Assembly: GCA_964589765.1 (NCBI GenBank) | Contig: CAZPUM010000002.1 | Span: 4,147-30,834, forward strand | Origin: an uncultured Methanosarcinales archaeon | Lineage (GTDB): Archaea; Nanobdellota; Nanobdellia; Woesearchaeales; UBA525 | Direction of reading: 5' to 3' | DNA length: 26,688 nucleotides | Shown: positions 327-26,688 of the stretch, piece by piece | Layout of the letters: every line of letters begins with the position of its first letter | How positions within the stretch are numbered: position 1 is the first letter of the stretch | Notes under the pieces: generated by a model | What the model saw: only the letters and a program-made list of their open reading frames with translations | What the model was told of the DNA's origin: nothing | Database searches by the model: none | Position numbers and translations under genes: made by a program

Positions 327-356
327 AATTTACCTCTTGTTTGAATCTTGATAAAC

Positions 357-6711: not shown

Positions 6712-8939
6712 TTCTCTTCAAGCCTTGCTTCCAGTATGGCGGCTCTGCCATAGTCCTGAATAACAATCTGTGTTGGATACGAAGTGACAACTTCTGCGTT
6801 CTCACTTGCGTCAATTGAATAGTAATACATCGTATAAACTCCCTCTTCGGGCAAATCAACGGAGGATAATCTTGATTGAGGTTCACAAGCGCCCGAATCT
6901 GAAAAACAGACTCGTGTATCAATCATTCCTATTGGACTCGCATCATCATAAACGGCATATGGGAAACTCCTTACTTCTGTCCTTCCATAAACTGGAGGTT
7001 CAAGCAGAAAGAACTCTGTTTCTGGAGGCACATTATCTCTGACACAGTAAGGATTATTTTCGTGAAAATAACCATTCTCTATACAGTCATCTTCATCACG
7101 GGTCTGTTTTTCGTCGGCATCTTTTACACACCTGGTTTTACCTGATACCCAACTACATGTTTGTAGACCTAAAGAGTCAGAACTTGGGGTTAACAGCGCG
7201 TTGGAACCAGAACGTTCATCTCCTGACCATGAAATATCAAAGACAGCATCCGTTCCACCAGTACAGGCATCTTGAGTGTCATAGTACCTACAGGCCATAT
7301 CACTGGAGTGTAAGCAACCATACGAACGTGCCAGACCATTTTTTTCTCCATCATAATAGCATTCTGGACTTATCGCTGAACAGACGTTGGAATTACAGAA
7401 CCCTATGACATCCTCGCACGAGTCACAACTTGGTCTTTCCTGTCCAAGACAGACGCCTTTCCCGAGTTCCGGAACAACATCCTGCCAATCGCAAACATCG
7501 TCTATCGCACAAGGGTTATCTGAACACGAACCGTAACTCTGATAGTCAGCGCAGGAGGTTATCGCAGCACAACTACTGAACGTAGTGAAAGTCATCGGCC
7601 TTCCTCCGAAGGCCTGGTCTGCGAAACACTGGTAAGTTTCATCCCCACATAATAAAGTCAAATCACCTACAACAATGCTCAAGTCAGAGTCAGCAAAAAG
7701 CCCAAGAAGACCGTTACACTGTTCGCACTCTGGTTGAGGAATACACTGGGCAAACCCGTTTATTGTTGAACAAATTGTATTAGTGCCTGAAGAATCGACG
7801 TCACAAACATTATCTGCTGAAAGCTGGTTCTCTTCGTCACACTCAACAACTGCGTTTTCACCTTCAAACTCACCACACCATTTTATGGGCGAACCTGCCG
7901 GGCGGTTCATACACTCATCTACACCTGTTGTGACACAGGCACCTGAATCGGTGTTTGAACTCTCTGTTATAGTTCCGTCGCCAAACCTTGCTCTAACAAC
8001 ATAACAATAAGTTGTTTCTGGTTGTAAACCTGAGTCCTCAATAACATAAGATGTCGATGGTTGAATCGGGTTGCAGTTGTTAAAGTCCGCATCACATCTC
8101 AGAGGTTCGTACTGTATGAAATCTCCGCACACATCATCAAAAGACACGGTTAAAACAACGGTGTCCGAACCCACGACAGGCTCCACAGACTCAACGTCAG
8201 GCTCCTCTTGAACACAGGAACCAAGTTCGCAGTTTAAGTTTATGTTTATGCCTGTTTTGTGATTGTCAACAACCACAACTGAAGACATGCCTGGCTGGCA
8301 TGCGGGATGAATTGCGAATACGCGGGTGGACATGCCAGGAACCTCTTCAAGTCTGTACTGCCCTGCAGAATCTGTAAAATCGCTAATGGCTCCTTGAGGA
8401 ATTGGTATGAAAACCTCCACATTCTCAAGAGGATGAACCCCTGTCCCGTTTTGTATGGTTCCCGAGACTGTATATGTATCATCCCCTCCCCCTCCTGCAG
8501 GGCTACCTGAGCACACCTCAACGCAGGAAGACGCAGCTGGAGGCTGTCCTTCCCAAGAGTAATCCTGTCCTTGGGCTATTTTTACTTGACAAGCGTTTTC
8601 TGTAATCTCAATAAGAGCAGGGTCTACATTGATTTGCCCACTATTTACAACAGAAGAACCAGCACAACAACATCCTATTGCACATTGTGTTAGAGGACTA
8701 CATGTTGATAGAGTTCCTGCCCCTTCAATTATCCCGCTTTGGGATGAACACGCGCTCTGGAAGGAGGGTTCTGACCCGAAAGCATCACCGTTAAAACAAT
8801 CTCCATAAGGTGGAACACAACAGCCCCACGTCTCCGCGTACGCGTTCGAAGACATTGTTACAGCTAGCACGATAACAACAACCAGTGCTACAATCCACCT
8901 CACCACAGACGATTTTCTCGTCTTTAAGTTTATAAACAT
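6708..8939 (-). CDS. Cysteine-rich secreted protein, 743 aa from ATG 8939 (752 aa if TTG 8966)
   Basis: The signal peptide is MFINLKTRKSSVVRWIVALVVVIVLAVTMSSNAYA-ETWGCC. I count about 50 Cys by hand. It has a CarboxypepD_reg-like segment (YTVSGTIQNGTGVHPLENVEVFIP...DSAGQYRLEEVP) and an FN3-like segment (LQPETTYCYVVRARF). The C-terminal module EGVYTMYYYSIDASENAE resembles the Ig-like domains with G-x-H-x-v-x-Y-y-S-x-D-x-A-G-N-x-E. There is no C-terminal TM helix. Confidence 0.85.
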   Translation of the reverse strand: MFINLKTRKSSVVRWIVALVVVIVLAVTMSSNAYAETWGCCVPPYGDCFNGDAFGSEPSFQSACSSQSGIIEGAGTLSTCSPLTQCAIGCCCAGSSVVNSGQINVDPALIEITENACQVKIAQGQDYSWEGQPPAASSCVEVCSGSPAGGGGDDTYTVSGTIQNGTGVHPLENVEVFIPIPQGAISDFTDSAGQYRLEEVPGMSTRVFAIHPACQPGMSSVVVVDNHKTGININLNCELGSCVQEEPDVESVEPVVGSDTVVLTVSFDDVCGDFIQYEPLRCDADFNNCNPIQPSTSYVIEDSGLQPETTYCYVVRARFGDGTITESSNTDSGACVTTGVDECMNRPAGSPIKWCGEFEGENAVVECDEENQLSADNVCDVDSSGTNTICSTINGFAQCIPQPECEQCNGLLGLFADSDLSIVVGDLTLLCGDETYQCFADQAFGGRPMTFTTFSSCAAITSCADYQSYGSCSDNPCAIDDVCDWQDVVPELGKGVCLGQERPSCDSCEDVIGFCNSNVCSAISPECYYDGEKNGLARSYGCLHSSDMACRYYDTQDACTGGTDAVFDISWSGDERSGSNALLTPSSDSLGLQTCSWVSGKTRCVKDADEKQTRDEDDCIENGYFHENNPYCVRDNVPPETEFFLLEPPVYGRTEVRSFPYAVYDDASPIGMIDTRVCFSDSGACEPQSRLSSVDLPEEGVYTMYYYSIDASENAEVVTSYPTQIVIQDYGRAAILEARLEEK

Positions 8940-8947
8940 TCCGTCTG

Positions 8948-10246
8948 TTACGACGAGACGGGGCAACCTAGCACAACTTTAGAATCCATCCAACCATCTG
9001 TGTCACTCACAGTCATGTTCAAATCCACGCCACAAACCGCGCCAGAGATATCATGACACCAATTGATAGAGACTGGATAACCATCGGGGTCTATGCCCTC
9101 TAAAACCCCGTCAGATAAAAGTTCTGTTGCAGAATGACTCTGCAGATAGGCACAGGAAAGATCAGAAAGAATCACAACGGGCTCTCTGTGCTCCATAAGA
9201 AACGAGAATGTATAGGATACTCCATCAAGTTCAGATTTAGAGTCTATTATTGTTACCATTGTTGCTGTTTCGCCGTTCTGTTGAATTGGCGGAGAAAGAG
9301 TTGTTTGAGCGACTGAATCAACCTCACTGGTCTGAACAGTAAACCCTGGTTTCCAGGAAGGAACTTCCCTGTAATCCTCAGAAATATCAAAAGCGATATC
9401 TCGGGATTCTCTTAAAGCCAAATCTCTAGCGTACTGCGCTATTTGCATGTATCTGAAATCGTAAGTTCTTCTGACCTCTTGTAAGTTAGTCTCTGCCTGC
9501 CCCACAATTGTTAATGGATAATAAACGCTGACAATCACATTGTTGAATGTGTATGCTATCTCTGCGGTTGGCTCTCCTACCTCAGTAACATCCACTCCAA
9601 GAGCCTCAGAGAATCTGGCAGGATTTGCACAGGCCTGAACTCTGTTAGCTATAATTGGCATAAGCATATTTTGTGTTGACTCTGTGTTAGGAACACTTGG
9701 TGGGCTACCCGGAAAACTCCTACACTCCCTAGTACTTCCTGGCCTGTTTGGGCCTTGTTTGTCACAGATTGGCGCAAAATTCACGTCACCAAAATATCCG
9801 GGCTGCCAAGATACCATTTTATTGCCCGTATCTGCCTGAATCAGGGTGTTTTCAACAGTAAAATCCTCATGAGGATAATCAGGCAGTTCATTTCTGTACG
9901 GTCTAAGTCCTGCTGAGCCAGGGATATCTCTGTTACGCGTCAAACCGTACAGCATCAACCGGGTTGTCGGACCTGACCCCACAATAGCTCTTGGATATGC
10001 GGGGTCATCAACATGCAGTCCTCCGGACTGTCCGAGCTTCTTGAACTCATCTATCACAACAGTGTCTATACAACTGCCAAGGACTGCACTCAGTTCGGCA
10101 GCGTTTGCACCCTCAATTATCTGTTGTCCCTGTTCGTACTCTTGCTGGACTCTCTGCTCAGTATCTAGCACCAGGAAAAATATCGCGACTATGAATAAAA
10201 TTACGAGACCCACTGCAACAAAAATTGTGACCTGCCCACCTCTCAT
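8948..10246 (-). CDS. Class III signal peptide protein with a large (~400 aa) extracellular domain; first gene of the operon, 432 aa from ATG 10246
   Basis: The N-terminus is MRGGQVTIFVAVGLVILFIVAIFFLVL. ATG 10246 lies 26-27 nt from the centre of the TATA box at 10268-10276. The upstream ATG at 10264 is only about 8 nt from that centre. Confidence 0.8.
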   Translation of the reverse strand: MRGGQVTIFVAVGLVILFIVAIFFLVLDTEQRVQQEYEQGQQIIEGANAAELSAVLGSCIDTVVIDEFKKLGQSGGLHVDDPAYPRAIVGSGPTTRLMLYGLTRNRDIPGSAGLRPYRNELPDYPHEDFTVENTLIQADTGNKMVSWQPGYFGDVNFAPICDKQGPNRPGSTRECRSFPGSPPSVPNTESTQNMLMPIIANRVQACANPARFSEALGVDVTEVGEPTAEIAYTFNNVIVSVYYPLTIVGQAETNLQEVRRTYDFRYMQIAQYARDLALRESRDIAFDISEDYREVPSWKPGFTVQTSEVDSVAQTTLSPPIQQNGETATMVTIIDSKSELDGVSYTFSFLMEHREPVVILSDLSCAYLQSHSATELLSDGVLEGIDPDGYPVSINWCHDISGAVCGVDLNMTVSDTDGWMDSKVVLGCPVSS

Positions 10247-12546: not shown

Positions 12547-12557
12547 TTAATATTTAA
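12547..12557 (-). promoter_or_regulatory. TATA-like TTAAATATTAA (minus-strand reading) upstream of the pseudouridine synthase gene
   Basis: The centre is about 23-26 nt upstream of ATG 12529. It overlaps the TAA stop (12554-12556) of the 710-aa gene. Confidence 0.35.
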
Positions 12558-14686
12558 CACTGATTGAAAGACATTACAACAAGCTGTATTATCTTTCCGT
12601 TGTACTCAACAAGCCTGGTCTGAGTAATCAAATCTTCCGCACAGCTCTCAATCTCCAACTCAGTTTCCACCGTTTCAGCTAGAATCGGGTTCCCTGAACA
12701 ACACTCTACTTTGTGCGTCGAGTTTAGATTAAAAACAGTTCCCGCATCAGCATCGTCACAAATTCTTATGACTTCTAACTGGTGTTCCGGTCTGAAACCA
12801 TCAAGAGTACAACCATTCACACCAAGACATGTATCATAATTACAGACTCCATAAATACTACATGTTGGTGTGCACTCTTCAGGACTGAGCTCGAAATTCT
12901 GGACATATGGGTCTGTGGACTCTGTAAGAACAATGTTTTCGTGAGTTTGAGGCAGATACATTGAGTGGTCTGCTATTGCTGATATGCTTCCTACGTGGAT
13001 ATCATTAATTCTATATTGTCCGAACGTGTCTGATGAATCAGTTTTTCCAAAGAATAATTCACGTACGGTCGCAGATTGTATTGGCTGTCCTGTAACAATA
13101 TCTGTAACTCGCCCCTCCATTGAAACATAACAGTTTACACCAAGAGGGGCGTCCATGGTTGACAAGTCAGAGTAAGACTGTGAAAGATTAATGTTACATT
13201 CAGGTCTGTACGCGCCATCAGCAGGAGTTGGACAAGTGAACCTCTGAACGGTTCCTGACCACTCTCTTTTTGTACAGTCTATACCGTTCAGTTCAGCTGA
13301 CAAACTTCTCACGTTGCCAACATTAGCATCACAAAGTATATCCACTTCCGGATTGATTAAGCTACATTTGTTTGTCGTGACAGTGCTGATACCCTGAATA
13401 TCCACCTTACATTCACTGTCACCTTTTGTATTACCTGAAACACCATCATAATCGATTTCTAAATCACAGTCATTGTCTATAGCATCAGTACAGATTTCGG
13501 CAACGCCAGGGTTGATATTAGGGTCTGTGTCATCACAATCAGTTCTAGGCACAGGACATAGTGTTGGAGAACCTATTGCGGAATAACCGTCCCCGTCCTG
13601 GTCACATGGCACGCACTGGTCCACTATACAAACCTCACTTGGAGGACAGTTCCTGTCAACATAAGGGTCTCTACAACCCGATGACCAGTGGCAGTATCCA
13701 CCAGTATAATCTCTAACTCTTGTGTCTGTTAGACAGTAATCATCGGAAGTTGAACAAGATACCGCAGAACCAGGTTCACAGTTGCCTACGCCATCGCAGG
13801 CATCGGGAGAAGTACACAGGTTATTGTCTGTACAGTACGACCCCGACGGAGAGTAACCCGTCCATATCTCTGTACACCTCAGCTCCCAAGGGTCGTCATC
13901 CATAACACAGTTCTGAGCATCCATATTTCCTGTTCCACTGTATCCTTTCCCCTCCTCATCATAACAACCCGCGCCCACATTACACTGTGGCTGTCTGTCC
14001 ACACAAAGAATTTCTTCATACAGGCTGTCAGTTATCGATGCAATACCTATCACATAGTAAATATCACAGTTAAGCTGGTCTGAATCACACCCGCAGTTAC
14101 CTAATTGACATGATTGTCTGTGATACTCTAGGCAGATGTGAGGATTATAAGACGTTTCACCGGGGCTCCCAAAATTATCCATGCTCCACTTATTTGCACA
14201 ACCCCCGCAGTTTTCCTCGTCATCCAGATAATCCCATAGTTTGTCAGTAACCTCGCCATCACAACACTCATATCTTGATTGGTCAGTTATTGTATTGCCA
14301 CAACTCCCGCAATTATCAGAATCGTAGAAGATGTCAGTACATACTCCCCCGCAACAGTCTTCCCAGTTTTCACAATTATTGCCTGCAGAACCACAGTTGT
14401 TTCTGTCTGTTTGGAAGTCTGTACATCCATTGAGACCACAGTCAGGCCTATCTGAACTCCATCCACAACAAACTCCGGTTCCTCCAGTGTCGCAGTAAGG
14501 TCTCGCATCATTAACTGATGTACACGAATCTGATGTACAGGTAAGTCCTATACACTGCGCTACACCATAATCTCCATCTGTTTTTCCATCACAAAAGTTT
14601 GGCCAGTCGGAACACACAGGGGGTTCGCTGAAAGCGGTCACTACAGGAATCACCAAAAGCACTGCTAAAAAGAGCACCCACCTCAT
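12554..14686 (-). CDS. Cysteine-rich secreted protein, 710 aa
   Basis: The signal peptide is MRWVLFLAVLLVIPVVTAFS. I count about 64 Cys by hand (~9%). It has Stig1-like NCGSCGN/NCGGC motifs and a MopE-type motif, CDQDGDGYSAIG...DCDDTDPNINPGVAEICTDAIDNDCD (nt 13445..13606). It also has a CarboxypepD_reg-like segment, MEGRVTDIVTGQPIQSATV...DTFGQYRINDIHVG (nt 12917..13126). Confidence 0.85.
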   Translation of the reverse strand: MRWVLFLAVLLVIPVVTAFSEPPVCSDWPNFCDGKTDGDYGVAQCIGLTCTSDSCTSVNDARPYCDTGGTGVCCGWSSDRPDCGLNGCTDFQTDRNNCGSAGNNCENWEDCCGGVCTDIFYDSDNCGSCGNTITDQSRYECCDGEVTDKLWDYLDDEENCGGCANKWSMDNFGSPGETSYNPHICLEYHRQSCQLGNCGCDSDQLNCDIYYVIGIASITDSLYEEILCVDRQPQCNVGAGCYDEEGKGYSGTGNMDAQNCVMDDDPWELRCTEIWTGYSPSGSYCTDNNLCTSPDACDGVGNCEPGSAVSCSTSDDYCLTDTRVRDYTGGYCHWSSGCRDPYVDRNCPPSEVCIVDQCVPCDQDGDGYSAIGSPTLCPVPRTDCDDTDPNINPGVAEICTDAIDNDCDLEIDYDGVSGNTKGDSECKVDIQGISTVTTNKCSLINPEVDILCDANVGNVRSLSAELNGIDCTKREWSGTVQRFTCPTPADGAYRPECNINLSQSYSDLSTMDAPLGVNCYVSMEGRVTDIVTGQPIQSATVRELFFGKTDSSDTFGQYRINDIHVGSISAIADHSMYLPQTHENIVLTESTDPYVQNFELSPEECTPTCSIYGVCNYDTCLGVNGCTLDGFRPEHQLEVIRICDDADAGTVFNLNSTHKVECCSGNPILAETVETELEIESCAEDLITQTRLVEYNGKIIQLVVMSFNQC

Positions 14687-16194: not shown

Positions 16195-19100
16195 CTAAGG
16201 CATCTGATAAAGCGGTTGTTCATCAGGTAAGATAAAATCAACACAGTTCGAGTACTCACAAAGGTTGTTGTTACAACTCATGATGCAGTTACCTACAAAG
16301 GGACAGTCAGACACTGTCTGACAGTAACCTGCCCCTGTAGAAGGCTCAGCAGGCATGTAAGTCAAGCCGTAAGTCTTGATTGCGGCACAGTGTAACTTCT
16401 GTCCTGAGTAAATCCATGCAGGGGCTCTACACCGGACACCTTCCTCGTTACAGATAGGCATCCTTTGCGCGCAAGCCTCATCATTGTTAGGATTGGGGTC
16501 AGGAACATTCGGGAAAACCCTAATATCAATCATAACAGGAACCTCGTACTCGCCCGGAGCATATTCTATCGTAACAGGCTTCTTACAAATATTGTATCCT
16601 TCCTGTCTTGTTAGAACAGTATATCCTGCAGGACAACTTCCTGCAGATGCAGTCAGGTCAATAAATGTAAGCTCCTCCGTTCCTGAGAGGTAGCTGACAA
16701 TAGATTCGTCCTCGCAATAAATACATCTCCCTCCATCACAAGAGGTGGAGTAGAGTGTTTGAGGATTGATGAATTGCGGACTGGAAAGCTCTGAACATGT
16801 ATTTGCGCCAGGATTTCCTGTCCAAATGCCTTGTGCGTTGTGCGTTATGGATGTCAAGTTGCCCTCGATGAGGTTTAGTCCGCCATCAACCCATTGCGCT
16901 ATAAGTTCAAACCCGCTTGCTTCTACAACAGAGAAGTCTAGACAGGTTACCGTTCCATCAACTTTCGCACAGTATTCGGAACCAAATCTGCCCGCGTCTC
17001 CTGAAACAGCACCTGATATTGTATCGTTATCGTGTGCGAACAGCACGGTTGTTTCTCCTGTGTTCAGCATCTTGACAGCATAGTAAGGAGGCATGTTCTC
17101 GTTAGGGTTCAAGCCTTTTCCAACAGGCGTCTCCTCTGAAAGTATGGAACTATCTGTTCCTAAATCTGCAAAGGTTCCCAACCAAGTTACGACACCTGTG
17201 GAAGACCTGATGAATGTCATAGGAACAACAGGCGTTCTGTCACCAACCATTGCTTTCAGGGTTTCAAACTCGGCTGATGATGAGACTGTGTTATTTAGAG
17301 CCGTCCTTTGTTCATCGGTCAGACCAAATATTTCAGAAGGTATTGGTTGTGTCACGTCGTCCCAAACGACGTCACCATCCTCTGGAGGGAATCCTGCAAC
17401 TGTAAGGGCGTTACCAATAGGTGTTAATTGCCTTCCAGGCCCAAACACATCTCCTATATCATAAGAGGTTGTTTTTCCTAATGCCAAAGATAGCAAAAGG
17501 TGTGTGCCCTGACTTGGTAGGGAATCGGAACGGGTCTTAGCGCCAGCAGACGCTACTGTGTATCCCTCGTAATAATCATCATTTGGAATCCCTGTGTATG
17601 GGTTTTCTGGAATTATCACTTCAAACTCTGTAATCTCGCTGTCGACTCCAGATAATGCTGCTATGGCCCAGTATGCCTGTAGCCACTCTTCAGCAGCTTG
17701 TTGTATGTCTGTATGTCCTCTTGTCTTTGACTCAGCAAGTACTGACATTACGCTTGCAACAACTGAAGGGGAATATACAGGGCTCATAATATCAGTTCCC
17801 ATAAAGTTACCTTCCCCTTTCTGAGCGTTAAAGTAATCTATCCACCACTGAACATAATCCTCTCCTTCTTGAAGGTATACTGCTGCTCCGCAGATTACCG
17901 GAATGTTCTGTCGTGAGGATGCTAAAACAGAGGCTCCTGACGAACCCATAACACCTTCCGCATCCATAAGAGCTGATGAAGACAAGGAGTTTCCTTGTAA
18001 GACATCCCATAGGTATCCGTTACATTTACAGTAGTATTCGCCCGCGCATCCATAAACATCTGGTAGAGGTGGGGGAGGGGTCCAGTCGTCGAGACAGAGA
18101 CCTTCTTGGTATCCGCAGTCTGTTAAATCGTAAGTACACTCGTTTGCGTCGCCCACCGCGAGACAGTCCGCGCTGTCTTCACTGAGAAAGCCCAACTCAT
18201 CACAGGACTTAGGTTCACTGACACCCGGTTCACATTGCTCTGTGAGACCAAGAATTCCGTTACCACAAGTGTCACCAGCAATTACAGAGCCTGAACCTGC
18301 ACCTATGGTTACTCCTGATGTGAGCTGTCTCCAGAGCATCCAGTCCTTTGTATTTTGTCTATTCAGTTCGAGCATCATTACCTGTCCTTGGTCACTCAGA
18401 GTGTATATGTTGTCATCATCCTCTGGAACAAGCGAAGAAAAATCTGTTTTGAATTGGTTGAACGCCAGCACGGCATTATCTCCGTACCAGGTTGCCGTGA
18501 TTGTTTTATCCCCTTCCTTGGCCAAAAATGCGTGGTGGAACTTCTGCAAAGGAAGAGTTGTTCCAGGGTCTATAAGCCCTCCAACTTGGCCTGATGGTGG
18601 AAGACCGAAAAGACCTCTAAAGAAATCAACAACAGATTCGAGAACCGTTGTTTCAAGTCCATCTATGGGGTTCTGACTTACAAGTATGAAAGCGGCCTGA
18701 GATGCATCTATTGGGTCTAAATAACCGTATGTGTTGAAACCCGGAATCGGTTCTCCGTCCGAACCTTCATTACAGTCTGCAAACTCTGTTTCCAGAGAAT
18801 TTAGTATGTTTCCGCAAGCATCAGGTCTGATTTCTGATGGGTCTATCTGAGCCGCAAACAAATCTGATTGGAATGTTGAAAAGGTCGATTGAAAAAATGT
18901 TTGCGTTGTTCCCGCCGTCCCAAAAATAATCTCGTCGTCATACCTTAGTACACAGTAAGGTTGGGAAGCATCCCCTGGAAAGATTGGTAAGACCTCTGAA
19001 GCAGGACCGCAGTCAAGCGAGTAATCATCTCCCTGAGGGAGCTGTGCCATGTTTGCGGCCAGAAAAGCAAGTCTTCCTTCAGGAGTGCCCAACTCTCCAC

Positions 19101-19773
19101 CTAGGGGGTTTGAACCTGTACTTGCCTGGACATCTACGCTAATATCTGAATAAACCCAACCTGCTGGCACGGGCTCGAGGTCTGAAAAAAACATAACCAT
19201 GAACCCTTCTTTTGTTTGGTCAAGAGTATACTCATTTTCTGGGTTGCTGTTGAGGTCATTTTCAATGTTGACTACATTGTTTTCATCTGAATCATATATA
19301 TCTAGTATGGATCTTGCAGGGTTTGTCTGCATAGAGACTCTTACAAAGTATGTTTCACCTTCCTCGGGCTCGAAATCTGCTGAAACAAGATTATCTGCTA
19401 TACCTCTGGCTACAAATCTTTGTTTCATGGTATATTTGTTGTCAATGCTTCCTCCTGCTATGTTCATATGAGAACAAAGATTTCTAAGGCTAAACCCTCC
19501 AAAAGGTCCCTCTCCATCAGTTTCTCCTACTGTCATATTGAAAGATAGATTGACGACACCATGTCCTGCGATATCTGAGGGGGTAGCAAGATACAAAGCG
19601 GATTCTGTTTCTCCAACTTCCCAAGGACCCTCATAGAAAATCAGGTTTCCTGGTTCGCCGTTACTGTCAGGAAAAAGCGTTCCAGCAGGAGGTTCCTGTT
19701 GAGTGTTTTCGGCGAACGCTGCCACTGATAAAACCAGGAATGCTATAAGAAAGTAAACGCCACCTCTCATCAT
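16195..19773 (-). CDS. Giant secreted cysteine-containing protein of unknown function, 1192 aa
   Basis: The signal peptide is MMRGGVYFLIAFLVLSVAAFA. It has a central CGNG-type Cys repeat (CGNGILGLTEQCEPGVSEPKSCDELGF...) and a Cys-rich C-terminus (CQTVSDCPFVGNCIMSCNNNLCEYSNC). There is no C-terminal TM helix and I recognise no enzymatic motif. Confidence 0.85.
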   Translation of the reverse strand: MMRGGVYFLIAFLVLSVAAFAENTQQEPPAGTLFPDSNGEPGNLIFYEGPWEVGETESALYLATPSDIAGHGVVNLSFNMTVGETDGEGPFGGFSLRNLCSHMNIAGGSIDNKYTMKQRFVARGIADNLVSADFEPEEGETYFVRVSMQTNPARSILDIYDSDENNVVNIENDLNSNPENEYTLDQTKEGFMVMFFSDLEPVPAGWVYSDISVDVQASTGSNPLGGELGTPEGRLAFLAANMAQLPQGDDYSLDCGPASEVLPIFPGDASQPYCVLRYDDEIIFGTAGTTQTFFQSTFSTFQSDLFAAQIDPSEIRPDACGNILNSLETEFADCNEGSDGEPIPGFNTYGYLDPIDASQAAFILVSQNPIDGLETTVLESVVDFFRGLFGLPPSGQVGGLIDPGTTLPLQKFHHAFLAKEGDKTITATWYGDNAVLAFNQFKTDFSSLVPEDDDNIYTLSDQGQVMMLELNRQNTKDWMLWRQLTSGVTIGAGSGSVIAGDTCGNGILGLTEQCEPGVSEPKSCDELGFLSEDSADCLAVGDANECTYDLTDCGYQEGLCLDDWTPPPPLPDVYGCAGEYYCKCNGYLWDVLQGNSLSSSALMDAEGVMGSSGASVLASSRQNIPVICGAAVYLQEGEDYVQWWIDYFNAQKGEGNFMGTDIMSPVYSPSVVASVMSVLAESKTRGHTDIQQAAEEWLQAYWAIAALSGVDSEITEFEVIIPENPYTGIPNDDYYEGYTVASAGAKTRSDSLPSQGTHLLLSLALGKTTSYDIGDVFGPGRQLTPIGNALTVAGFPPEDGDVVWDDVTQPIPSEIFGLTDEQRTALNNTVSSSAEFETLKAMVGDRTPVVPMTFIRSSTGVVTWLGTFADLGTDSSILSEETPVGKGLNPNENMPPYYAVKMLNTGETTVLFAHDNDTISGAVSGDAGRFGSEYCAKVDGTVTCLDFSVVEASGFELIAQWVDGGLNLIEGNLTSITHNAQGIWTGNPGANTCSELSSPQFINPQTLYSTSCDGGRCIYCEDESIVSYLSGTEELTFIDLTASAGSCPAGYTVLTRQEGYNICKKPVTIEYAPGEYEVPVMIDIRVFPNVPDPNPNNDEACAQRMPICNEEGVRCRAPAWIYSGQKLHCAAIKTYGLTYMPAEPSTGAGYCQTVSDCPFVGNCIMSCNNNLCEYSNCVDFILPDEQPLYQMP

Positions 19774-19932: not shown

Positions 19933-22623
19933 ATGAAAAGATTCTCTACTGCTACTGCACTTTGTAGTCTTGTTCTTGCTAGCACAATCCCATTAACAAA
20001 TAACAATACAGCATATGCGGTAGAACCAACAAACATTGTTCAAGAAAAATCTCAAGAACCCCCTATTGAACCAACAGACCCCGTAACGCCTACAACAGGT
20101 GAACTGACACCAGAGCAACTTGACGAGTATCTTGAAGCGCTTGAAAAGAGTCAAACCCAAGGGTCAAATGATGAGAACACCCCGAAAACATTCGCAGGCG
20201 AAGTCACTGTTGAAGGAAACATCGAAAAAACCAACGAACAAACCTTGCTTGACGCACGAAAGAACTCCGCTATCGTGAGCGACTCAATATCCTCTGAAGA
20301 AATAAGCAAAAGCCCAGACTCCAATGCCGCAGACACAGTCCAGAGACTGACAGGCATCACCATTCTTGGAGATAAATATGTGTTTGTCAGAGGTTTGGGA
20401 GAACGGTACAGTGGAAGCACCATCAATGGTTCAATCCTGCCCAGCACTGAGACTGAACGTCGCGTTGTACCCCTTAATCTTTTTCCATCAAAACTCCTCG
20501 AGAGAATAGACATTATCAAAACATATACTCCGGATATGCAGGGGGATTTTGGTAGTGGCATAGTACAGATGAAAACCAAAAATTTTCCAAAAGAAACCTT
20601 ATTCTCAATCGGACTGGGTACTGGCATAAACAGCTCAGCAACAGGCCAGGACTTTAGAACATATGCGGGCGGACTTGATATACTAGGCAGAGGAGGACAG
20701 AAACTTCCCTCAGGCATCCCTACAGAATATATCTCAAGAAGAACAGCCCTCAATCCCGTAGGGTACACTCCCGAGGAAATACAGGCTTTTGGGAGGCTCA
20801 TGGTTGGAGACTGGACAGGAACTGAGACTAGTGCACAACCCAACACTAATTTTTCTCTTACATACGGAGATACAATCGGCAGACTCGGTCTGATTTTCTC
20901 AGCCACTTCAACCAGTGGATACGAATCGATTGATGAAGAGTTGCGCTTCTTCAGTCTAGACTCAAACACGCTTGTTCCTCGAAATAATTATGAACTTGTT
21001 ACTGATAAAGAAAACGCCCAATTAGCAGGAATCACAAGTATCTCCTTTAAACTTAACGACGACCACACTCTATCATTCGATTCTTTTTACACCAAGAACT
21101 CCTCAACAGAGAACAGAGTACAGGAAGGGCTCAGTACAAATAGTGGAGGATTCATTAAAGATTATCGAGTAATGTTCAAGGATGAGCAAGTCCTCTCAAC
21201 AAAACTTTCTGGTAAACACAACTTTTCGTGGCCTGGAATTGCAAGTCTTCTGGAGTGGCATGGCTCAAAAGCGACAGCAACCAATAATTCTGATTTAAGA
21301 GAAAACCTTTACAGCATGGGTGCTCAAGGGGTATATTCTCTTATGACTGGTTCTCCTGAAACAGGAAAGATGGAATTCTATGACCTTGAAGACAACACGC
21401 AAGAGTTAGGTATTGATTACACTGTTTTTTTCTCGCTACCGAAAAACGCATATGGTTCAATAAAAGCAGGGCACCTACACATGAATCGTGAGCGTGGTTT
21501 TGAAGCTAGACGATTGCGCTTTGTTGTTCAAAACCAGACTCTGTTTGATCTCACTCAAATGCCAGAACAACTTTTCACCCCTGAAAATATCAGGCCAGGA
21601 GGTTTCGAGCTACGTGAAACAACAGGAGTAAATGACGCGTACGACGCCACACACACCGTAACTGCAAGTTATCTGATGGCAGATATAAACATGAACAAGT
21701 GGCGTGTAGTGGGTGGGGCTCGCATGGAAGATTCAAACCAAAACGTGGTTACATATAACCCGTTCAACACAGAGACAGGAGTTATATCAAGCGAACAAAG
21801 CACCGATGTCCTGCCATCACTAAACATTATTTACCGGTACTCACCTAACACAAACTTCAGGGTTGCGTATTCAAGGTCCGTTAACCGACCTGAGTTTAGG
21901 GAATTGAGTCCCTTCACTTTTGTTGAAGTCACTGGAGGAAGATCCATTGCTGGTAATCCTGATTTAAAACAAGCCACTATTGACGCCTATGACCTTCGAT
22001 GGGAAACTTTTCCTAGCCAAGGTTCAGTAATCGCTACAAGCGCATTCTATAAAACAATCCAAACCCCTATTGAGCGCATTATACAGCCAACAACCGAGCT
22101 CCGCACATCATTCGTGAATGCTGACCAAGCAACACTTATGGGTGGGGAGATAGAATTAAGACACTCGTTGGATGTTTTGGGACGTGTTTTTAAGAACTGG
22201 TCTGTAAATGCAAATTACACATACACAACATCAGAAGTGAGTATTGGCGACCAACAGTATTCAGTAACTACAACGTCAAACCGTCCTCTTATGGGACAGT
22301 CTGACCATGTGGGAAATATCTCACTTCAATATTTTAATCCTAGATGGGGATTTATGAGTCGGGCACTAATCACACATGTTGGTGAGCGCATAACAGATGT
22401 CGGTTCTTTCGGGCTTCCTGATATCAAAGAGAGCCCTTATACAACATTTGATATTGTTATTTCACAGGACCTGGCCAAGATAGCAAAAGGTCTTTCTATG
22501 AAGATTGCTGGTCACAACTTACTCGATACCGAACGAATTTTTACGCAGGGCAACGAAATACAGCGAATTTACAGTCCTGGACGCGCGTTTAGTATAGGAC
22601 TTAGCTATACGCCCCCGTGGTAA
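19933..22623 (+). CDS. TonB-dependent outer-membrane receptor (bacterial type), 896 aa
   Basis: The Sec signal peptide is MKRFSTATALCSLVLASTIPLTNNNTAYA. The plug domain (about nt 20230..20577) reads DTVQRLTGITILGDKYVFVRGLGERYSGSTINGSILPSTETERRVVPLNLFPSKLLERIDIIKTYTPDMQGDFGSGIVQMKTKNFP. A long beta-barrel region follows, ending in the aromatic terminus ...GRAFSIGLSYTPPW. A strong SD, GAGGTGA, lies 5 nt upstream of the ATG. Confidence 0.85.
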   Translation: MKRFSTATALCSLVLASTIPLTNNNTAYAVEPTNIVQEKSQEPPIEPTDPVTPTTGELTPEQLDEYLEALEKSQTQGSNDENTPKTFAGEVTVEGNIEKTNEQTLLDARKNSAIVSDSISSEEISKSPDSNAADTVQRLTGITILGDKYVFVRGLGERYSGSTINGSILPSTETERRVVPLNLFPSKLLERIDIIKTYTPDMQGDFGSGIVQMKTKNFPKETLFSIGLGTGINSSATGQDFRTYAGGLDILGRGGQKLPSGIPTEYISRRTALNPVGYTPEEIQAFGRLMVGDWTGTETSAQPNTNFSLTYGDTIGRLGLIFSATSTSGYESIDEELRFFSLDSNTLVPRNNYELVTDKENAQLAGITSISFKLNDDHTLSFDSFYTKNSSTENRVQEGLSTNSGGFIKDYRVMFKDEQVLSTKLSGKHNFSWPGIASLLEWHGSKATATNNSDLRENLYSMGAQGVYSLMTGSPETGKMEFYDLEDNTQELGIDYTVFFSLPKNAYGSIKAGHLHMNRERGFEARRLRFVVQNQTLFDLTQMPEQLFTPENIRPGGFELRETTGVNDAYDATHTVTASYLMADINMNKWRVVGGARMEDSNQNVVTYNPFNTETGVISSEQSTDVLPSLNIIYRYSPNTNFRVAYSRSVNRPEFRELSPFTFVEVTGGRSIAGNPDLKQATIDAYDLRWETFPSQGSVIATSAFYKTIQTPIERIIQPTTELRTSFVNADQATLMGGEIELRHSLDVLGRVFKNWSVNANYTYTTSEVSIGDQQYSVTTTSNRPLMGQSDHVGNISLQYFNPRWGFMSRALITHVGERITDVGSFGLPDIKESPYTTFDIVISQDLAKIAKGLSMKIAGHNLLDTERIFTQGNEIQRIYSPGRAFSIGLSYTPPW

Positions 22624-22733: not shown

Positions 22734-22928
22734 TCATCCACCACTTATCACACTTAGAAGTTCTACTTTTTCAGCCCCTTCAACAGAATCATCTTCTGTT
22801 ATCAGAGTTCCATCACGAACTACGAGAACTGTTTCTAGGTTTATTTCCAGGTCGTTCAAAAGCTCTTTGGCTGTGCCTGTGAACTCTTTGTTCAATGTTT
22901 TGCCAGTTTTTTCTATAAAAACTTCCAT
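22734..22928 (-). CDS. ThiS/MoaD/SAMP-type ubiquitin-like sulfur carrier with a C-terminal Gly-Gly, 64 aa from ATG 22928
   Basis: The protein is MEVFIEKTGKTLNKEFTGTAKELLNDLEINLETVLVVRDGTLITEDDSVEGAEKVELLSVISGG followed by a stop. Its beta-grasp length and ...SGG terminus fit the family. The track start at 22940 is a TTG. Confidence 0.7.
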   Translation of the reverse strand: MEVFIEKTGKTLNKEFTGTAKELLNDLEINLETVLVVRDGTLITEDDSVEGAEKVELLSVISGG

Positions 22929-22954
22929 AGTTGTGACCAAATTGATGAGACACG

Positions 22955-23146: not shown

Positions 23147-23479
23147 ATGAGATGTGTGGAATGTGAAGAAACAATCACCAACCCCATCTGTCCTGCCTGC
23201 TTACAAGTTGGCGTGGAGCAGTGGTTGCGTGAGGAACACCGAGAAGCGCTCGTGCCTGAGTTGCATGAGCTTACCAGAAGAGTGTTCTGGAACGATGGAG
23301 AGACGTTTTGCATTAAGTGTAATAATCTGATGTCCACGTGTGCTTATTGCTATACAAAGGCGGTGTTTGATCTCATTAGGCACGAGCCTGACTTGTTACA
23401 ACGTTACTTGGTCTATTTCAACTACGATTTAGGCCATATGGGGTGGGAGCAGGAGGCTGTCGCCCTTATAGATACATAG
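23147..23479 (+). CDS. Small zinc-ribbon-like protein, 110 aa
   Basis: The Cys pairs are CVEC...CPAC near the N-terminus and CIKC...CAYC mid-protein. I cannot assign a family. Confidence 0.6.
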   Translation: MRCVECEETITNPICPACLQVGVEQWLREEHREALVPELHELTRRVFWNDGETFCIKCNNLMSTCAYCYTKAVFDLIRHEPDLLQRYLVYFNYDLGHMGWEQEAVALIDT

Positions 23480-23711: not shown

Positions 23712-23765
23712 TTTATAATAGAAATGTGCCAAAACTTTATAATGTTTATAAATACCTTTATAAAT
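23712..23765 (+). promoter_or_regulatory. Cluster of four TTTATAA(T/A) TATA-box motifs upstream of tbp
   Basis: The boxes are TTTATAATA 23712-23720, TTTATAAT 23736-23743, TTTATAAAT 23745-23753 and TTTATAAAT 23757-23765. The last box predicts a transcription start near 23787 and a ~20-nt leader carrying GGGGGT (23796-23801). Confidence 0.55.
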
Positions 23766-23806: not shown

Positions 23807-24382
23807 ATGACTGCAACCAAAAATAAAACAAGTAATAGTGGGGTTGACGAGACCGATATCAGGATTGTCAATATCGTAGTTTCAACAAGTTTGGAGCACG
23901 ACATTCCACTGGAAAAGATGGCTGCTGTTCTACCGAACACAGAATACAACCCGGAGCAGTTCCCAGGCCTGGTTATCAGGATCAAGGAACCACACACGTC
24001 AGCTCTGATTTTCAGTTCTGGCAAGGTTGTATGCACAGGAGCAGACACGCTGGAAAAGGTCGACAGGAGCATCGAGAAGATTATCGAGGCTTTAAAGAAG
24101 ATTAACATCGATATCAAAATCCAGCCAAAGATTACAGTTCAGAACGTAGTTGCCTCAGGCAGCATCGGAATGGACCTAAATCTAAACAAGCTAGCAATGA
24201 AACTGGACAACACAGAGTACGAACCCGAGCAGTTCCCAGGTTTGGTATACAAGCTAATGGAAGCAAAGGCAACATTCCTGCTGTTCAGCAACGGTAAGAT
24301 TGTCTGTACTGGTACCAAGAGTAGAGAACAGGTAATGGAAGCTGTAAACAAGCTTGTTGAAGTCCTAAAAGGCGTAATGTAA
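23807..24382 (+). CDS. tbp: TATA-box binding protein, 191 aa
   Basis: It has two canonical TBP repeats. The first is IVNIVVSTSLEHDIPLEKMAAVLPNTEYNPEQFPGLVIRIKEPHTSALIFSSGKVVCTGA. The second is VQNVVASGSIGMDLNLNKLAMKLDNTEYEPEQFPGLVYKLMEAKATFLLFSNGKIVCTGT. Confidence 0.95.
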   Translation: MTATKNKTSNSGVDETDIRIVNIVVSTSLEHDIPLEKMAAVLPNTEYNPEQFPGLVIRIKEPHTSALIFSSGKVVCTGADTLEKVDRSIEKIIEALKKINIDIKIQPKITVQNVVASGSIGMDLNLNKLAMKLDNTEYEPEQFPGLVYKLMEAKATFLLFSNGKIVCTGTKSREQVMEAVNKLVEVLKGVM

Positions 24383-24383
24383 T

Positions 24384-24400
24384 CTTTTTCTTTTTTCTTC
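24384..24400 (+). terminator. Oligo-T tract after tbp (T5 and T6 runs)
   Basis: CTTTTTCTTTTTTCTTC lies immediately after the TAA stop at 24380-24382. It may be leaky, because the next gene starts at 24423 with no TATA box in between. Confidence 0.4.
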
Positions 24401-24422
24401 CTGGGTGGTGTGGAGCTAGAGA

Positions 24423-25223
24423 ATGCTATGGGCAACCCATCCACGACAGCCATTTGATGACAGAGGGATTACACTTCTTGGTAAAATCGACAAAAGCTAC
24501 CACAACGTCTTTGAAGCGGATATGAACGGCAAAAAAGTTGTCGTCAAACTGTTCGATGTATATGAAAGGTTCAACAGAGAATCATGTTCATTAATAGGCC
24601 TGAAAAATATCTGTAAAACGCCTGAGTTCATAGACAGTTTTCAGTACTCATCTAAAATAAGGGCCATGAGCAAAAAAATGGCTGTAGTGATGAGTTTTAT
24701 TCCAGGTGTTAAAGTTAGAGATATTGCACCAAGAAGCATGGTCGATGGCGTTGTCAGCGCCACCAAAGAATTCGAAAAAATGCATCGAGCAGGATATGTA
24801 CATAGTGATGCAGCGCTCAGAAATGTAATATACAACGGCACAGATTCCACACTTATAGATTTTGAATACACCGCCAAAGAGGGAGAAAAGTTCAACTGGG
24901 AAAAAAACTCTCTGAGCGTTAGCATAATCCCGCCTGAGTCGAGAGAAATTGGAATGATTTATCGCACACAGGATATTGATGTTTTTGCCCTCGGATTCAG
25001 TTTCCAACAATCGATGAGAAAAAGACTGAATTACATAATTCTCAATAACCCGCCCCGCACAGCAGGGCCTGTAATAGCTCTGCTAAAACATAACGGGGAG
25101 CTTAAGGAAAGACTAGGACAACCACAAGAAAGACCTCAAACCATGATAGAATTAAGAGAAATGGTAGAAACCTATTACCACCCAATCCAAAGACTGGAGG
25201 AAGCATATGAGCATTCTGCTTGA
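24423..25223 (+). CDS. Minimal eukaryotic-like protein kinase, paralog 1, 266 aa
   Basis: Its ePK subdomains are beta3 Lys (VVVKLF), alphaC Glu (FNRES), catalytic loop YVHSDAALRNVIY, LIDFE (DFG-equivalent), IIPPE (APE-equivalent), DVFALG (subdomain IX) and RPQTMIELREMVE (subdomain XI). Confidence 0.75.
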   Translation: MLWATHPRQPFDDRGITLLGKIDKSYHNVFEADMNGKKVVVKLFDVYERFNRESCSLIGLKNICKTPEFIDSFQYSSKIRAMSKKMAVVMSFIPGVKVRDIAPRSMVDGVVSATKEFEKMHRAGYVHSDAALRNVIYNGTDSTLIDFEYTAKEGEKFNWEKNSLSVSIIPPESREIGMIYRTQDIDVFALGFSFQQSMRKRLNYIILNNPPRTAGPVIALLKHNGELKERLGQPQERPQTMIELREMVETYYHPIQRLEEAYEHSA

Positions 25224-25923
25224 CGCTTTTCTTGATAGGGAGATATACCCTGACGGCTGTATTGACCTGGGAATAAACAATTGTACCTACAAATTCACGC
25301 CGGTGATTGTCAAGGCGTTCTGTTATGAAAGACCCTTCAGGAACGAAATTAGGGGATTACAAAAAATGAATGATACAGAAGTAAGCCCTAAAGTGTACAG
25401 TTCATTTGAGATTGAGACTGGTTTGAAACCATTTGGCTGGCTGGGTTTTGTTGTAATGGAAAAAGTTGAGGGAACATCCCTATTATTTCAAGAGAGATTA
25501 AAAGTCATTCAAGGAGCTATAGATGCCACAATTTGTTTGGAAACACTACATGAAAAAGGATTGGTTCACGGAGATGCCGCCCTAAGAAATATCATGTACT
25601 CAAACCGTACAAAAATTATTGACTTTGAATATTGTGAAGAAAACGGATACAAATGGGATTGGAGAGCACAAGGAATTAACGACCATTTGATTCCACCCGA
25701 AAATCAAACTGGTTCTGTTACTATGAACCCTGCACTTGACGTATACGCTCTGGGACGGTCCATTTCACAACTACTGGCCACTTATGATACCGTCATGTGT
25801 CCATCAGACCATCTAAACCGATTTTCAAGAAGAATCCTTGGTCTGGACCCCCGCCCCATAACAATGCCTGAGCTGAGAGCAGAACTACTGGAACTCAGAA
25901 AGGGGTATGTGTATGAGCAGTGA
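25207..25923 (+). CDS. Minimal eukaryotic-like protein kinase, paralog 2, 238 aa
   Basis: Its motifs are VIVKAF, FRNEIRGL, LVHGDAALRNIMY, IIDFE, LIPPE, DVYALG and RPITMPELRAELLEL. It overlaps paralog 1 by 17 nt, and its start context is TATGAGCA. Confidence 0.75.
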   Translation: MSILLDAFLDREIYPDGCIDLGINNCTYKFTPVIVKAFCYERPFRNEIRGLQKMNDTEVSPKVYSSFEIETGLKPFGWLGFVVMEKVEGTSLLFQERLKVIQGAIDATICLETLHEKGLVHGDAALRNIMYSNRTKIIDFEYCEENGYKWDWRAQGINDHLIPPENQTGSVTMNPALDVYALGRSISQLLATYDTVMCPSDHLNRFSRRILGLDPRPITMPELRAELLELRKGYVYEQ

Positions 25924-26665
25924 ACTGTTAGAAAAAGAGCTGAAAAGAAAAGGCATATCTTTGGAACCTGATCAATTAGGATTTTTCTATGACACCATCT
26001 TATATGGCAAATACAATAGTATGCCTTGCGTAATCAAATTTTTCGCAGAACCTATGGAGTTTCATAGAGAAAAAACCGCTCTAAAAGAGCTTAAAGGGGT
26101 TGCAAATGTTCCTGAACTGTACTTTACCGGAGCAGTCTCGAAAGCGGTTGCAGAGTTCCACTCCACAGAATATGTGGTTATGGAGAGGGTCAACGCAAAA
26201 GAGGTCATAGATATTCCAGTAGAAAGCAGAATACCCTCCATTATTCAAGCAACATATGAATTTGAAAAAATACATTCTGCAGGGTTTGTTCATACTGATG
26301 CAGCAGTCAGAAATGTTTTGTACAACGGAACACCCACAATTATTGACTTTGAATTCACGGACAGGATTGGAGTACCTATCGATTGGACGGGAGAAGGTCT
26401 GGACCCTGAACTATTCCCTCCGGAAAGTTCATCAACCGTGCCGAGGACTCCTGAAGTAGACACTTATGCGTTGGGAAACAACCTGATATTCCTTTATCTT
26501 GATTGGTTTTCCATGAATAACAAACCTAATTGGCGTTTCGGAACTCCTGATAACTACAAGACCCCGCTATTAGATTTCAGAAAAATGATGCACACACCTG
26601 ACAGACCAAAAACGATGATTGAGTTAAGAGAAACGCTGGAAGACTTAGAACACAGAATTTCTTAA
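25913..26665 (+). CDS. Minimal eukaryotic-like protein kinase, paralog 3, 250 aa from ATG 25913 (252 aa if ATG 25907)
   Basis: Its motifs are CVIKFF, FHREKTALKEL, FVHTDAAVRNVLY, IIDFE, LFPPE, DTYALG and RPKTMIELRETLEDL. ATG 25913 has the same TATGAGCA context as the paralog 2 start, and overlaps paralog 2 by 11 nt. Confidence 0.75.
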   Translation: MSSELLEKELKRKGISLEPDQLGFFYDTILYGKYNSMPCVIKFFAEPMEFHREKTALKELKGVANVPELYFTGAVSKAVAEFHSTEYVVMERVNAKEVIDIPVESRIPSIIQATYEFEKIHSAGFVHTDAAVRNVLYNGTPTIIDFEFTDRIGVPIDWTGEGLDPELFPPESSSTVPRTPEVDTYALGNNLIFLYLDWFSMNNKPNWRFGTPDNYKTPLLDFRKMMHTPDRPKTMIELRETLEDLEHRIS

Positions 26666-26688
26666 ACAGAACGCCTAAGACCCCTTTT

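Follow-up and report, generated by a model that had tools for sequence, protein, structure and literature searches.

What is a run of three small protein-kinase genes doing immediately downstream of the gene for the TATA-binding protein (TBP) in a DPANN archaeon? The question is raised by a 26,688-nucleotide stretch of contig CAZPUM010000002.1 (assembly GCA_964589765.1, positions 4,147 to 30,834 of the forward strand), which we call the window and which carries, close to its right end, three overlapping genes, K1, K2 and K3, that follow tbp on the same strand (Table 1). We consider it probable, with some reserve, that these genes encode tandem-duplicated, translationally coupled, compact single-domain cytoplasmic kinases of the Hanks fold, belonging to a small and fast-diverging subfamily of Woesearchaeota that is inserted 3' of tbp.

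The open reading frames (ORFs) of K1 and K2 overlap by 17 nt (25207-25223) and those of K2 and K3 by 11 nt (25913-25923); K2 and K3 share the start context TATGAGCA, and K1 begins 40 nt past the end of tbp. In these respects the locus is as a first-pass annotation of the same DNA had described it, namely as three coupled paralogs directly downstream of tbp. At both junctions the start context and a ribosome-binding-site (RBS) motif lie within the 3' end of the preceding gene, which is consistent with translational coupling, and K1 has a Shine-Dalgarno-like GGAG upstream (24412-24415). An alternative ATG at 25907 would extend K3 to 252 aa; the public protein record gives 250 aa. The window stops at 26688, and the gene that comes after K3 lies outside it.

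A multiple sequence alignment of the three proteins, which are 31-35% identical to each other, shows that the motif inventory of the first-pass annotation holds for every copy: the β3 lysine, the αC glutamate, the catalytic loop VH-x-DAA-x-RN (VH[SGT]DAA[LV]RN), IDFE, PPE, D-x-[YF]-ALG and RP-x-TM-x-ELR are invariant, and the activation segment from DFE to PPE is exactly 27 residues long in each of K1, K2 and K3. The β3 lysine and αC glutamate (K42 and E53 in K1 numbering) are also invariant in the three close relatives recovered by database searches (P0011, P0040 and P0048). Hence the residues of phosphotransfer (β3 Lys, αC Glu, H-x-D, the loop Asn and the Asp of DFE) are kept together with the structural anchors, that is the Glu of PPE, the αF Asp and the Arg of subdomain XI. 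An activation segment running from DFG to APE, and a GHI helical subdomain with the αF Asp and the subdomain XI Arg, are the features that separate eukaryotic protein kinases (ePKs) from eukaryotic-like kinases (Taylor et al., PMC3415842).

On sequence, profile libraries place K1-K3 within the protein-kinase-like superfamily, mostly by scores that lie under the cut-offs. With the Pfam Pkinase model (PF00069; gathering threshold 31.7 bits) K2 scores 28.3 and K3 26.7 bits and K1 has no match; among the relatives, P0048 passes with 35.3 bits and P0040 falls just under with 31.4. PF07714 (PK_Tyr_Ser-Thr; threshold 23.1) gives 18.2 bits for K2, 14.4 for K3 and no match for K1, whose best Pfam match is DUF5898 (23.7 bits versus a cut-off of 28.9). 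The sole match above threshold is that of K2 to APH (25.0 versus 23.2 bits), which spans only residues 110-143, 34 residues from the catalytic loop to DFE. Choline_kinase (16 versus 29 bits), Kdo (12-13 versus 21.3) and ABC1 are likewise sub-threshold, RIO1 (17.7 and 12.1 versus 22) and arch_bud32 (28-34 versus 125) fall far short, and NCBIfam yields weak Bud32 and LanL-kinase matches well under cut-off. A profile of K1-K3 searched against the sequences of the PDB retrieved PknB (4.9e-8, the best), PpkA, PAK4-6 and JNK, in alignments that run from the N-lobe through subdomain IX.

The fold was addressed with an AlphaFold (AF2) model of K3 that took as input a 52-sequence alignment of small single-domain matches. 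This model is confident, with a predicted local distance difference test score (pLDDT) of 91.9 and a predicted template-modelling score of 0.89, while an input of just the three paralogs gave a poor one (pLDDT 55). In a Foldseek search of the PDB the best 50 matches are all protein kinases, aligned over both lobes in 222-296 columns with a query template-modelling score of 0.48-0.67. They include PknG (5.7e-9), YabT, CK1, ABL2, Src, LCK, TYK2, SYK, FGFR2 and IRAK4, the best being the Ser/Thr kinases PknG, YabT and CK1; APH, choline-kinase, RIO, Bud32 and Kdo-kinase structures are absent from these 50, and the viral Foldseek library returned generic protein kinases only. Because the profile matches PknB, PAK4 and JNK and the K3 model is confident, the likeness to protein kinases goes far beyond chance. 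Together with the predicted structure, these results indicate that K1-K3 are true, if pared-down, eukaryotic-type (Hanks) protein kinases with the full two-lobed fold. The first-pass annotation was thus right to see kinase domains only, with an ePK C-lobe and of neither RIO nor Bud32 type; the best matches do not belong to the APH, choline-kinase or Kdo families, and the catalytic residues are conserved in P0011 and P0040, P0048 alone having His in place of the loop Asn.

The C-lobe appears to have been trimmed. In the K3 model αF is followed by just two helices, which we take as αH and αI because the conserved Arg of the RP motif lies between them. At the position of αG, residues 204-208 of K3 have a pLDDT below 50, and the same region is deleted in K2, so that the αG helix is probably missing and the GHI subdomain, as modelled, present in reduced form.

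The first-pass annotation had further drawn attention to a tyrosine-kinase-like catalytic loop. The loop of K1-K3 does have Ala at D+2, where Ser/Thr kinases carry Lys, and Arg at D+4 just before Asn; D+1 is also Ala, and the catalytic Asp follows S, G or T in place of R. The corresponding loops are HGDLALRN in P0011 (with IIDFEF), HRDIAARN in P0040, which is the exact tyrosine kinase (TK) consensus, and HCDIKEQH in P0048, with Lys at D+2. Across the 204 kinase domains of the 150 best matches of an exhaustive search, D+2 is Lys in 143, and the pair of Ala at D+2 and Arg at D+4 is found in only 10 (about 5%). P0011 and P0040 are among these 10, as are P0060, P0083 and P0084, which are similar to eukaryotic TKs and tyrosine-kinase-like kinases (TKLs) and carry a P-x-[KR]-W-[ML]-A-P-E P+1 loop. 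The P+1 signature of TKs, P-[IV]-[KR]-W-[TM]-A-P-E, is absent from K1-K3, which have SIIPPE, HLIPPE and ELFPPE, with no Trp at -3. P0040 scores 37.0 bits on PF07714, above both the threshold and its own Pkinase score; K2 and K3 score lower on PF07714 than on Pkinase. As the TK P+1 loop is missing, K2 and K3 favour Pkinase and Ser/Thr kinases lead the structural matches, the TK likeness, judged from sequence, is real but restricted to the catalytic loop, and membership of the TK group is unsupported; the loop motif in common, and not closer kinship, would seem to account for the profile matches to eukaryotic TKs. The first-pass annotation had described the loop correctly and was right to leave the exact family open.

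How far this subfamily extends was approached with searches of very different reach. In the 90%-cluster database of 5.8 billion clusters, a word-indexed search retrieved nothing apart from the queries themselves, and a family profile run on the same database added nothing further but a fish PIM-2 kinase (E=1.6e-4). An exhaustive HMMER search of 1.84 billion representative proteins gave 1372 matches at E<=1e-3 and 22 at E<=1e-10, with the best non-self match at 7e-21. At the top of the list stand, for the most part, very large bacterial proteins with several kinase domains and HxDLKPxN loops of the ordinary kind; the close relatives are P0011, P0040 and P0048, all small, with an N-terminal 'L..L..KG' helix, the catalytic loop and the C-terminal RP motif. 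Pairwise identity among these three and K1-K3 is 21-36%, the closest pair being K2 and P0011 (35.8%). By sequence, then, this is a nearly orphan subfamily with about six distinct members among 1.84 billion representatives. Three other small kinases with a partly similar IDF[EDG]...PPE arrangement were considered and excluded: P0017, whose loop is the canonical HLDVKPDN, and P0039 and P0042, which come from contigs with a GC content of 24-27%; none of them is linked to tbp. Searches of genome contigs and viral contigs with the kinase alignment found no related loci, and no viral relatives turned up in viral collections. The kinases (21-36% identity) diverge faster between these genomes than do housekeeping neighbours (45-55%) and TBP (87-96%), and their GC content and GC content at third codon positions (GC3) match those of the rest of the window.

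Among the high-ranking matches to the K1-K3 profile are also tandem two-kinase proteins of cyanobacterial appearance (P0013, P0014, P0016, P0018 and P0021). Their first domain has an HRDAHPGN or HRDATSAN loop, with Ala at D+1 and no Lys at D+2, that is reminiscent of the 'HADPHPGN' of ABC1/UbiB.

The window is archaeal, encoding TBP, RNase P p30, SAMP2 and Memo, and TBP-based retrieval from species-representative genomes led to Woesearchaeota (DPANN, Nanoarchaeota), whose TBPs are 72-88% identical to that of the window. Many records titled 'uncultured Methanosarcinales archaeon' (L006, L012, L020, L021 and others) likewise have TBPs in this range of identity and Woesearchaeota-like synteny, and their labels look unreliable. 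A check for similar kinase genes next to tbp in related genomes, as the first-pass annotation had proposed, was positive: P0011, P0040 and P0048 are all encoded directly 3' of tbp (loci L003, L004 and L005, Table 1), three further samples of the L005-type (P0040) species have the order tbp-kinase-GrpB...mcm, and the TBPs encoded beside the kinases elsewhere share 87-96% identity with that of the window. A family hidden Markov model applied to 80 genome-derived and 80 metagenome-derived other Woesearchaeota TBP loci found no further member.

In 148 of 165 TBP loci mcm lies downstream of tbp on the same strand, with a gap below 200 nt in about 125. Because this adjacency prevails, it is taken as the ancestral arrangement and the kinase as an insertion between the two genes. 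A difference in presence can be seen between L005 and the kinase-less L006, whose DNA is about 86% identical to the left and right of a clean indel (786 nt with the kinase versus 64 nt); the borders of this indel have no repeats. A further locus, L001, lacks the kinase though its neighbouring genes resemble those of the window more than L005's do, so that at least two gains or losses are needed; ancestral presence with repeated loss would be the simplest reading. In L001 a 333-aa protein is encoded downstream of tbp; it was considered as a diverged kinase and rejected (hhalign probability 0.1%). In a small number of other lineages the tbp-mcm interval holds a PIN toxin-antitoxin pair, GrpB, a 163-aa ORF of no assigned family, or the 333-aa protein with a peptidase; wherever the kinase is present it is the tbp-proximal gene, even beside other inserts, in one copy or, in the window, three. 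An origin from mobile elements was rejected, given the lack of border repeats, compositional deviation and viral homologs. The kinase gene or genes are thus a rare insertion between two core genes, confined to a narrow clade of Woesearchaeota.

As a separate observation, the literature searched contained no description of the conserved tbp-mcm pair, which joins a transcription and a replication gene in most Woesearchaeota.

The tbp-kinase block has one recognisable archaeal-type promoter upstream, probably constituted by the TATA-like boxes that precede tbp; the close spacing of these four boxes could reflect autoregulation by TBP. The spacers between tbp and the kinase in the four locus types (40, 12, 88 and 55 nt) contain no TATA boxes, and the gene following the kinase in L003 and L004 has TATA-like boxes of its own. 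Oligo-T tracts act as termination signals in archaea, and the tract directly after tbp is probably its terminator; it recurs in L004 (~223-230), L005 (~7955-7972) and the kinase-less L006 (~6565-6581). As the tbp-K1 spacer lacks a TATA box, the most likely route of expression is transcription that starts at the tbp promoter and reads on into the kinase genes, and partial read-through of the oligo-T tract would keep the kinases below the level of TBP. K1-K3 would then be translated by coupling through their overlapping stop and start codons. A scan for sigma-70 promoters and terminators gave counts equal to shuffled expectation, with a bacterial model that is not meaningful for an archaeon, and neither tRNA nor Rfam RNA genes were found in the window.

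Intact catalytic residues in a confidently predicted fold suggest that all three kinases are catalytically active. With HSD, HGD and HTD, K1-K3 are kinases of the non-RD type, which lack the Arg before the catalytic Asp, and would therefore probably not require phosphorylation of the activation loop. The Arg at D+4 would take over from the Lys at D+2 in contacting the γ-phosphate and the substrate, as in tyrosine kinases, and the missing αG helix and degenerate Gly-rich loop would entail atypical substrate docking and nucleotide clamping.

Several findings weigh against the interpretation that we favour. The Pkinase scores of K2 and K3 are sub-threshold and K1 has none; the Gly of DFG is replaced by Glu; and the Gly-rich loop is degenerate in all three, as the first-pass annotation had noted, with no GxGxxG and at most one Gly left in the β1-β2 region. 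P0040-type orthologs are essentially identical, and the ratio of nonsynonymous to synonymous substitutions (dN/dS) computed on them is too poor in differences to show selection. The oligo-T tract could end transcription, leaving the kinases poorly expressed, and it is also present where no kinase follows. The kinase is absent from the close relatives L001 and L006 and hence dispensable, and the unrelated accessory genes in the same interval of other lineages make it less likely that the adjacency has a functional meaning. The neighbourhood showed no signalling gene, be it a partner phosphatase, an FHA domain or another. It is from gene position that TBP and MCM suggest themselves as substrates, and the TBPs of L005, with a kinase, and L006, without one, look alike: they share their N-terminus and do not differ in identity to the window TBP.

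Another reading would make K1-K3 small-molecule kinases (APH, choline kinase or Kdo kinase) that do not act on proteins, since IDFEY calls to mind the choline-kinase motif, the Gly-rich loop is degenerate and APH passes its cut-off not only on K2 but also on P0011 (26.0 bits) and P0040 (29.2). The APH match on K2 is, however, limited to 34 residues, no structure of these families is among the best 50 Foldseek matches, and the 27-residue activation segment ending in PPE, the αF Asp and the subdomain XI Arg are ePK features (PMC3415842); we regard this reading as highly improbable. The same degenerate loop and DFE, the repeated loss of the gene in relatives and the lack of the catalytic-loop Asn in P0048 might instead suggest decaying or non-catalytic pseudokinase genes left from an old insertion. 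To this we give scarcely any credence, for the three ORFs are intact, the catalytic and anchor residues are all invariant at ~32% identity, the model is of high confidence and the coupled start contexts have been maintained. A more substantial alternative is that K1-K3 are genuine tyrosine or dual-specificity Hanks-type archaeal kinases in which the Arg at D+4 acts as in eukaryotic TKs. It can draw on the H-x-D-A-A-x-R-N loop and its counterparts in P0011 and P0040, on the PF07714 score of P0040, on the scarcity of the loop combination, whose examined bearers outside the family (P0060, P0083, P0084) are TK/TKL-like, and on the many TKs among the best Foldseek matches. Against it stand the [IF]-[IF]-P-P-E that replaces the P+1 signature, the preference of K2 and K3 for Pkinase, the Ser/Thr kinases at the head of the structural matches and the Lys at D+2 of P0048. 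A catalytic-loop motif by itself, moreover, does not fix the specificity for the acceptor. All in all we think this alternative quite unlikely. Tyrosine phosphorylation is abundant in archaea, the kinases responsible for it being largely unidentified; Sut1, the first archaeal tyrosine kinase to be reported, is not of the Hanks type (bioRxiv 10.1101/2024.01.14.552423). Sut1 was considered as a relative of K1-K3 and, being unrelated, rejected.

It is also possible, if doubtful, that K1-K3 are accessory 'conflict' kinases, engaged in anti-virus defence or in interactions between host and symbiont, that sit in a permissive tbp-mcm site, so that their adjacency to tbp has no meaning. This would fit their patchy spread (four locus types among ~170), the presence/absence polymorphism between L005 and L006, the variable copy number, the fast divergence relative to housekeeping neighbours and the PIN toxin-antitoxin pair, GrpB and other inserts in the same interval of other lineages. 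PADLOC profiles of defence kinases (PD-T4-6, MkoA, mad6 and Stk2) score 12-29 bits with K1-K3 and up to 44.5 with P0048, and the weak matches to the first three (14-44 bits) might be cited in support; yet these are at the level of generic kinase domains and comparable to Pfam Pkinase. There are no defence partner genes in the window or the related loci, no relatives in viral collections, no mobile-element scars at the indel and no deviation of GC or GC3 from the host genome, and the kinase is always tbp-proximal, even with other inserts. Reading the adjacency as functional, one would arrive at TBP or MCM as the substrates, a suggestion drawn from gene position that we consider unlikely. The stronger version, in which the kinases are dedicated regulators of the flanking basal machinery that phosphorylate TBP, for instance to control its turnover or promoter binding, as proposed for TBP2 of Haloferax volcanii, or MCM, in a DDK/CDK-like licensing step, by TK-like chemistry, seems to us very unlikely. 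We therefore retain the reading of K1-K3 as compact Hanks-fold kinases of a Woesearchaeota subfamily inserted 3' of tbp.

Two neighbours upstream of tbp touch on this subject. The gene for a SAMP2/ThiS-type ubiquitin-like modifier is conserved in L001 and L002, and its proximity to tbp may not be accidental, given that TBP2 is a SAMP2 substrate in Haloferax (PMC4895103). Between it and tbp lies a gene for a 110-aa Cys-rich zinc-ribbon protein, and the order zinc ribbon-tbp is conserved in L001, L005 and L006.

The rest of the window offers two further observations. It encodes a TonB-dependent receptor with Plug and 22-strand-type β-barrel domains and a signal-peptide-like N-terminus, an outer-membrane barrel in an organism without an outer membrane. 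Its closest relatives are from Acidobacteriota (Thermoanaerobaculia), at 50-62% identity, and have an N-terminal CarboxypepD_reg domain that the window protein lacks; in relatives of the window its position is taken by TspO. Because its GC and GC3 match those of the window, the receptor looks like an established bacterial-to-archaeal transfer and not a chimeric assembly. Almost half of the window is filled by genes for four very large, fast-diverging proteins that are 27-37% identical to their relatives and for which Pfam gives no match at all or just CarboxypepD_reg, MopE-like or STIG1-like Cys-rich modules; presumably these are surface proteins of an episymbiont.

Table 1. Positions of the features discussed, in window coordinates unless a locus handle indicates one of the related loci
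Feature	Position	Strand	Remarks
Very large protein	2842-6711	-	1289 aa
Very large protein	6708-8966	-	752 aa
Very large protein	12554-14686	-	710 aa
Very large protein	16195-19773	-	1192 aa
TonB-dependent receptor	19933-22623	+	896 aa
SAMP2/ThiS-type modifier gene	22734-22940	-	~870 nt upstream of tbp
Zinc-ribbon protein gene	23147-23479	+	110 aa
Four TATA-like boxes (TTTATAAT twice, TTTATAAA twice)	23712-23764	+	40-95 nt upstream of tbp, spread over ~55 nt
tbp	23807-24382	+	191 aa; Pfam TBP E=2.3e-61, NCBIfam TBP models; upstream anchor of the kinases
Oligo-T tract (T5-C-T6)	24385-24396	+	Directly past tbp stop; candidate termination/attenuation signal
K1	24423-25223	+	266 aa
K1 β3 Lys42	24537-24548	+	
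K1 VHSDAALRN	24798-24824	+	
K1 IDFEY	24855-24869	+	
K1 PPE	24930-24938	+	
K1 DVFALG	24978-24995	+	
K1 RPQTMIELR	25131-25157	+	
K1/K2 junction	25196-25213	+	Within K1 3' end; GGAGG RBS motif 25196-25200, TATGAGCA start context 25206-25213
K2	25207-25923	+	238 aa
K2 VHGDAALRN	25564-25590	+	
K2 IDFEY	25618-25632	+	
K2 PPE	25693-25701	+	
K2 DVYALG	25738-25755	+	
K2 RPITMPELR	25852-25878	+	
K2/K3 junction	25901-25919	+	Within K2 3' end; RBS-like AGGGG 25901-25905, TATGAGCA start context 25912-25919
K3	25913-26665	+	250 aa; copy chosen for the structure model
K3 VHTDAAVRN	26288-26314	+	
K3 IDFEF	26342-26356	+	
K3 PPE	26417-26425	+	
K3 DTYALG	26459-26476	+	
K3 RPKTMIELR	26603-26629	+	
L003 TBP	2836-3390		
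L003 kinase	3478-4272		
L004 cut-off ORF	1-222		TBP C-terminus, 70/73 identical to window TBP
L004 kinase	235-1083		
L004 mcm	from 1176		
L005 TBP	7349-7945		
L005 kinase	8001-8756		

The Hanks-type fold is itself already well known; of interest here are a new, nearly orphan variant with an unusual combination of motifs and its position between tbp and mcm. K1-K3 are among the most pared-down complete ePK domains, and AlphaFold gives a confident kinase fold despite the absence of a regular Gly-rich loop and, probably, of αG, the non-RD catalytic site, DFE, PPE and the Arg at D+4, so that they amount to a natural experiment on the minimal needs of a protein kinase. A triplicated accessory kinase is unexpected in DPANN archaea, with their tiny genomes. 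The locus is also relevant to the search for the kinases behind archaeal phosphotyrosine; an archaeal tyrosine kinase of the Hanks type would be an important find, and here a single motif points to one. The tbp-mcm position further provides a testable idea, that of phosphoregulation of archaeal transcription or replication initiation. Were TBP or MCM indeed regulated by TK-like chemistry, no tyrosine or dual-specificity kinase of the Hanks type would have been connected with either process in Archaea before these; if the position is incidental, the locus is a clade-specific accessory kinase array only.

Among known systems, the closest to the TBP connection is that of Haloferax volcanii, in which phosphorylation of TBP2 at Ser2 is followed by its conjugation to SAMP2 and by degradation, through a kinase that the study calls unidentified (Fu et al. 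2016, PMC4895103). The window resembles this case in having a SAMP2-like gene and the kinases on either side of tbp, and its TBP starts with M-T-A-T. It differs in belonging to another phylum; K1-K3 homologs were found within one Woesearchaeota clade and nowhere outside it, L003 and L005 have no SAMP2 gene beside tbp, and the TBPs of these two loci start with Met-Ala, so that a Ser/Thr2 site is not conserved across kinase-bearing loci, which speaks against a link to TBP. The parallel may therefore serve as a lead only.

With regard to the kinases themselves, RIO and Bud32 are universal in archaea and are not known to have a full activation segment or the αF, αH and αI helices. K1-K3 are like them in being small, single-domain archaeal kinases with weak profile cross-matches, and unlike them in having the full segment and, as modelled for K3, these helices. 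With eukaryotic TK/TKL kinases (PF07714, HRDLAARN) they share the Ala at D+2, the Arg at D+4 followed by Asn and a subdomain XI of the RP-x-[TF]-M/F-x-EL style; they depart from these kinases in having no P-x-[KR]-W-[TM]-A-P-E and no Arg before the catalytic Asp, and in the lower scores of K2 and K3 on PF07714 than on PF00069. From Hanks-type Ser/Thr kinases such as PknB, PknG and YabT (PF00069) they are set apart by sub-threshold PF00069 scores, the lack of Lys at D+2, the non-RD site, DFE for DFG and PPE for APE, a degenerate Gly-rich loop, the predicted lack of αG and a length of only 238-266 aa, without sensor, transmembrane or PASTA domains. With these same Ser/Thr kinases they nevertheless have in common the two-lobed ePK fold, as predicted for K3, together with the β3 Lys, the αC Glu, H-x-D...N, the Asp of DFx, an APE-like PPE, the αF Asp and the Arg of subdomain XI.

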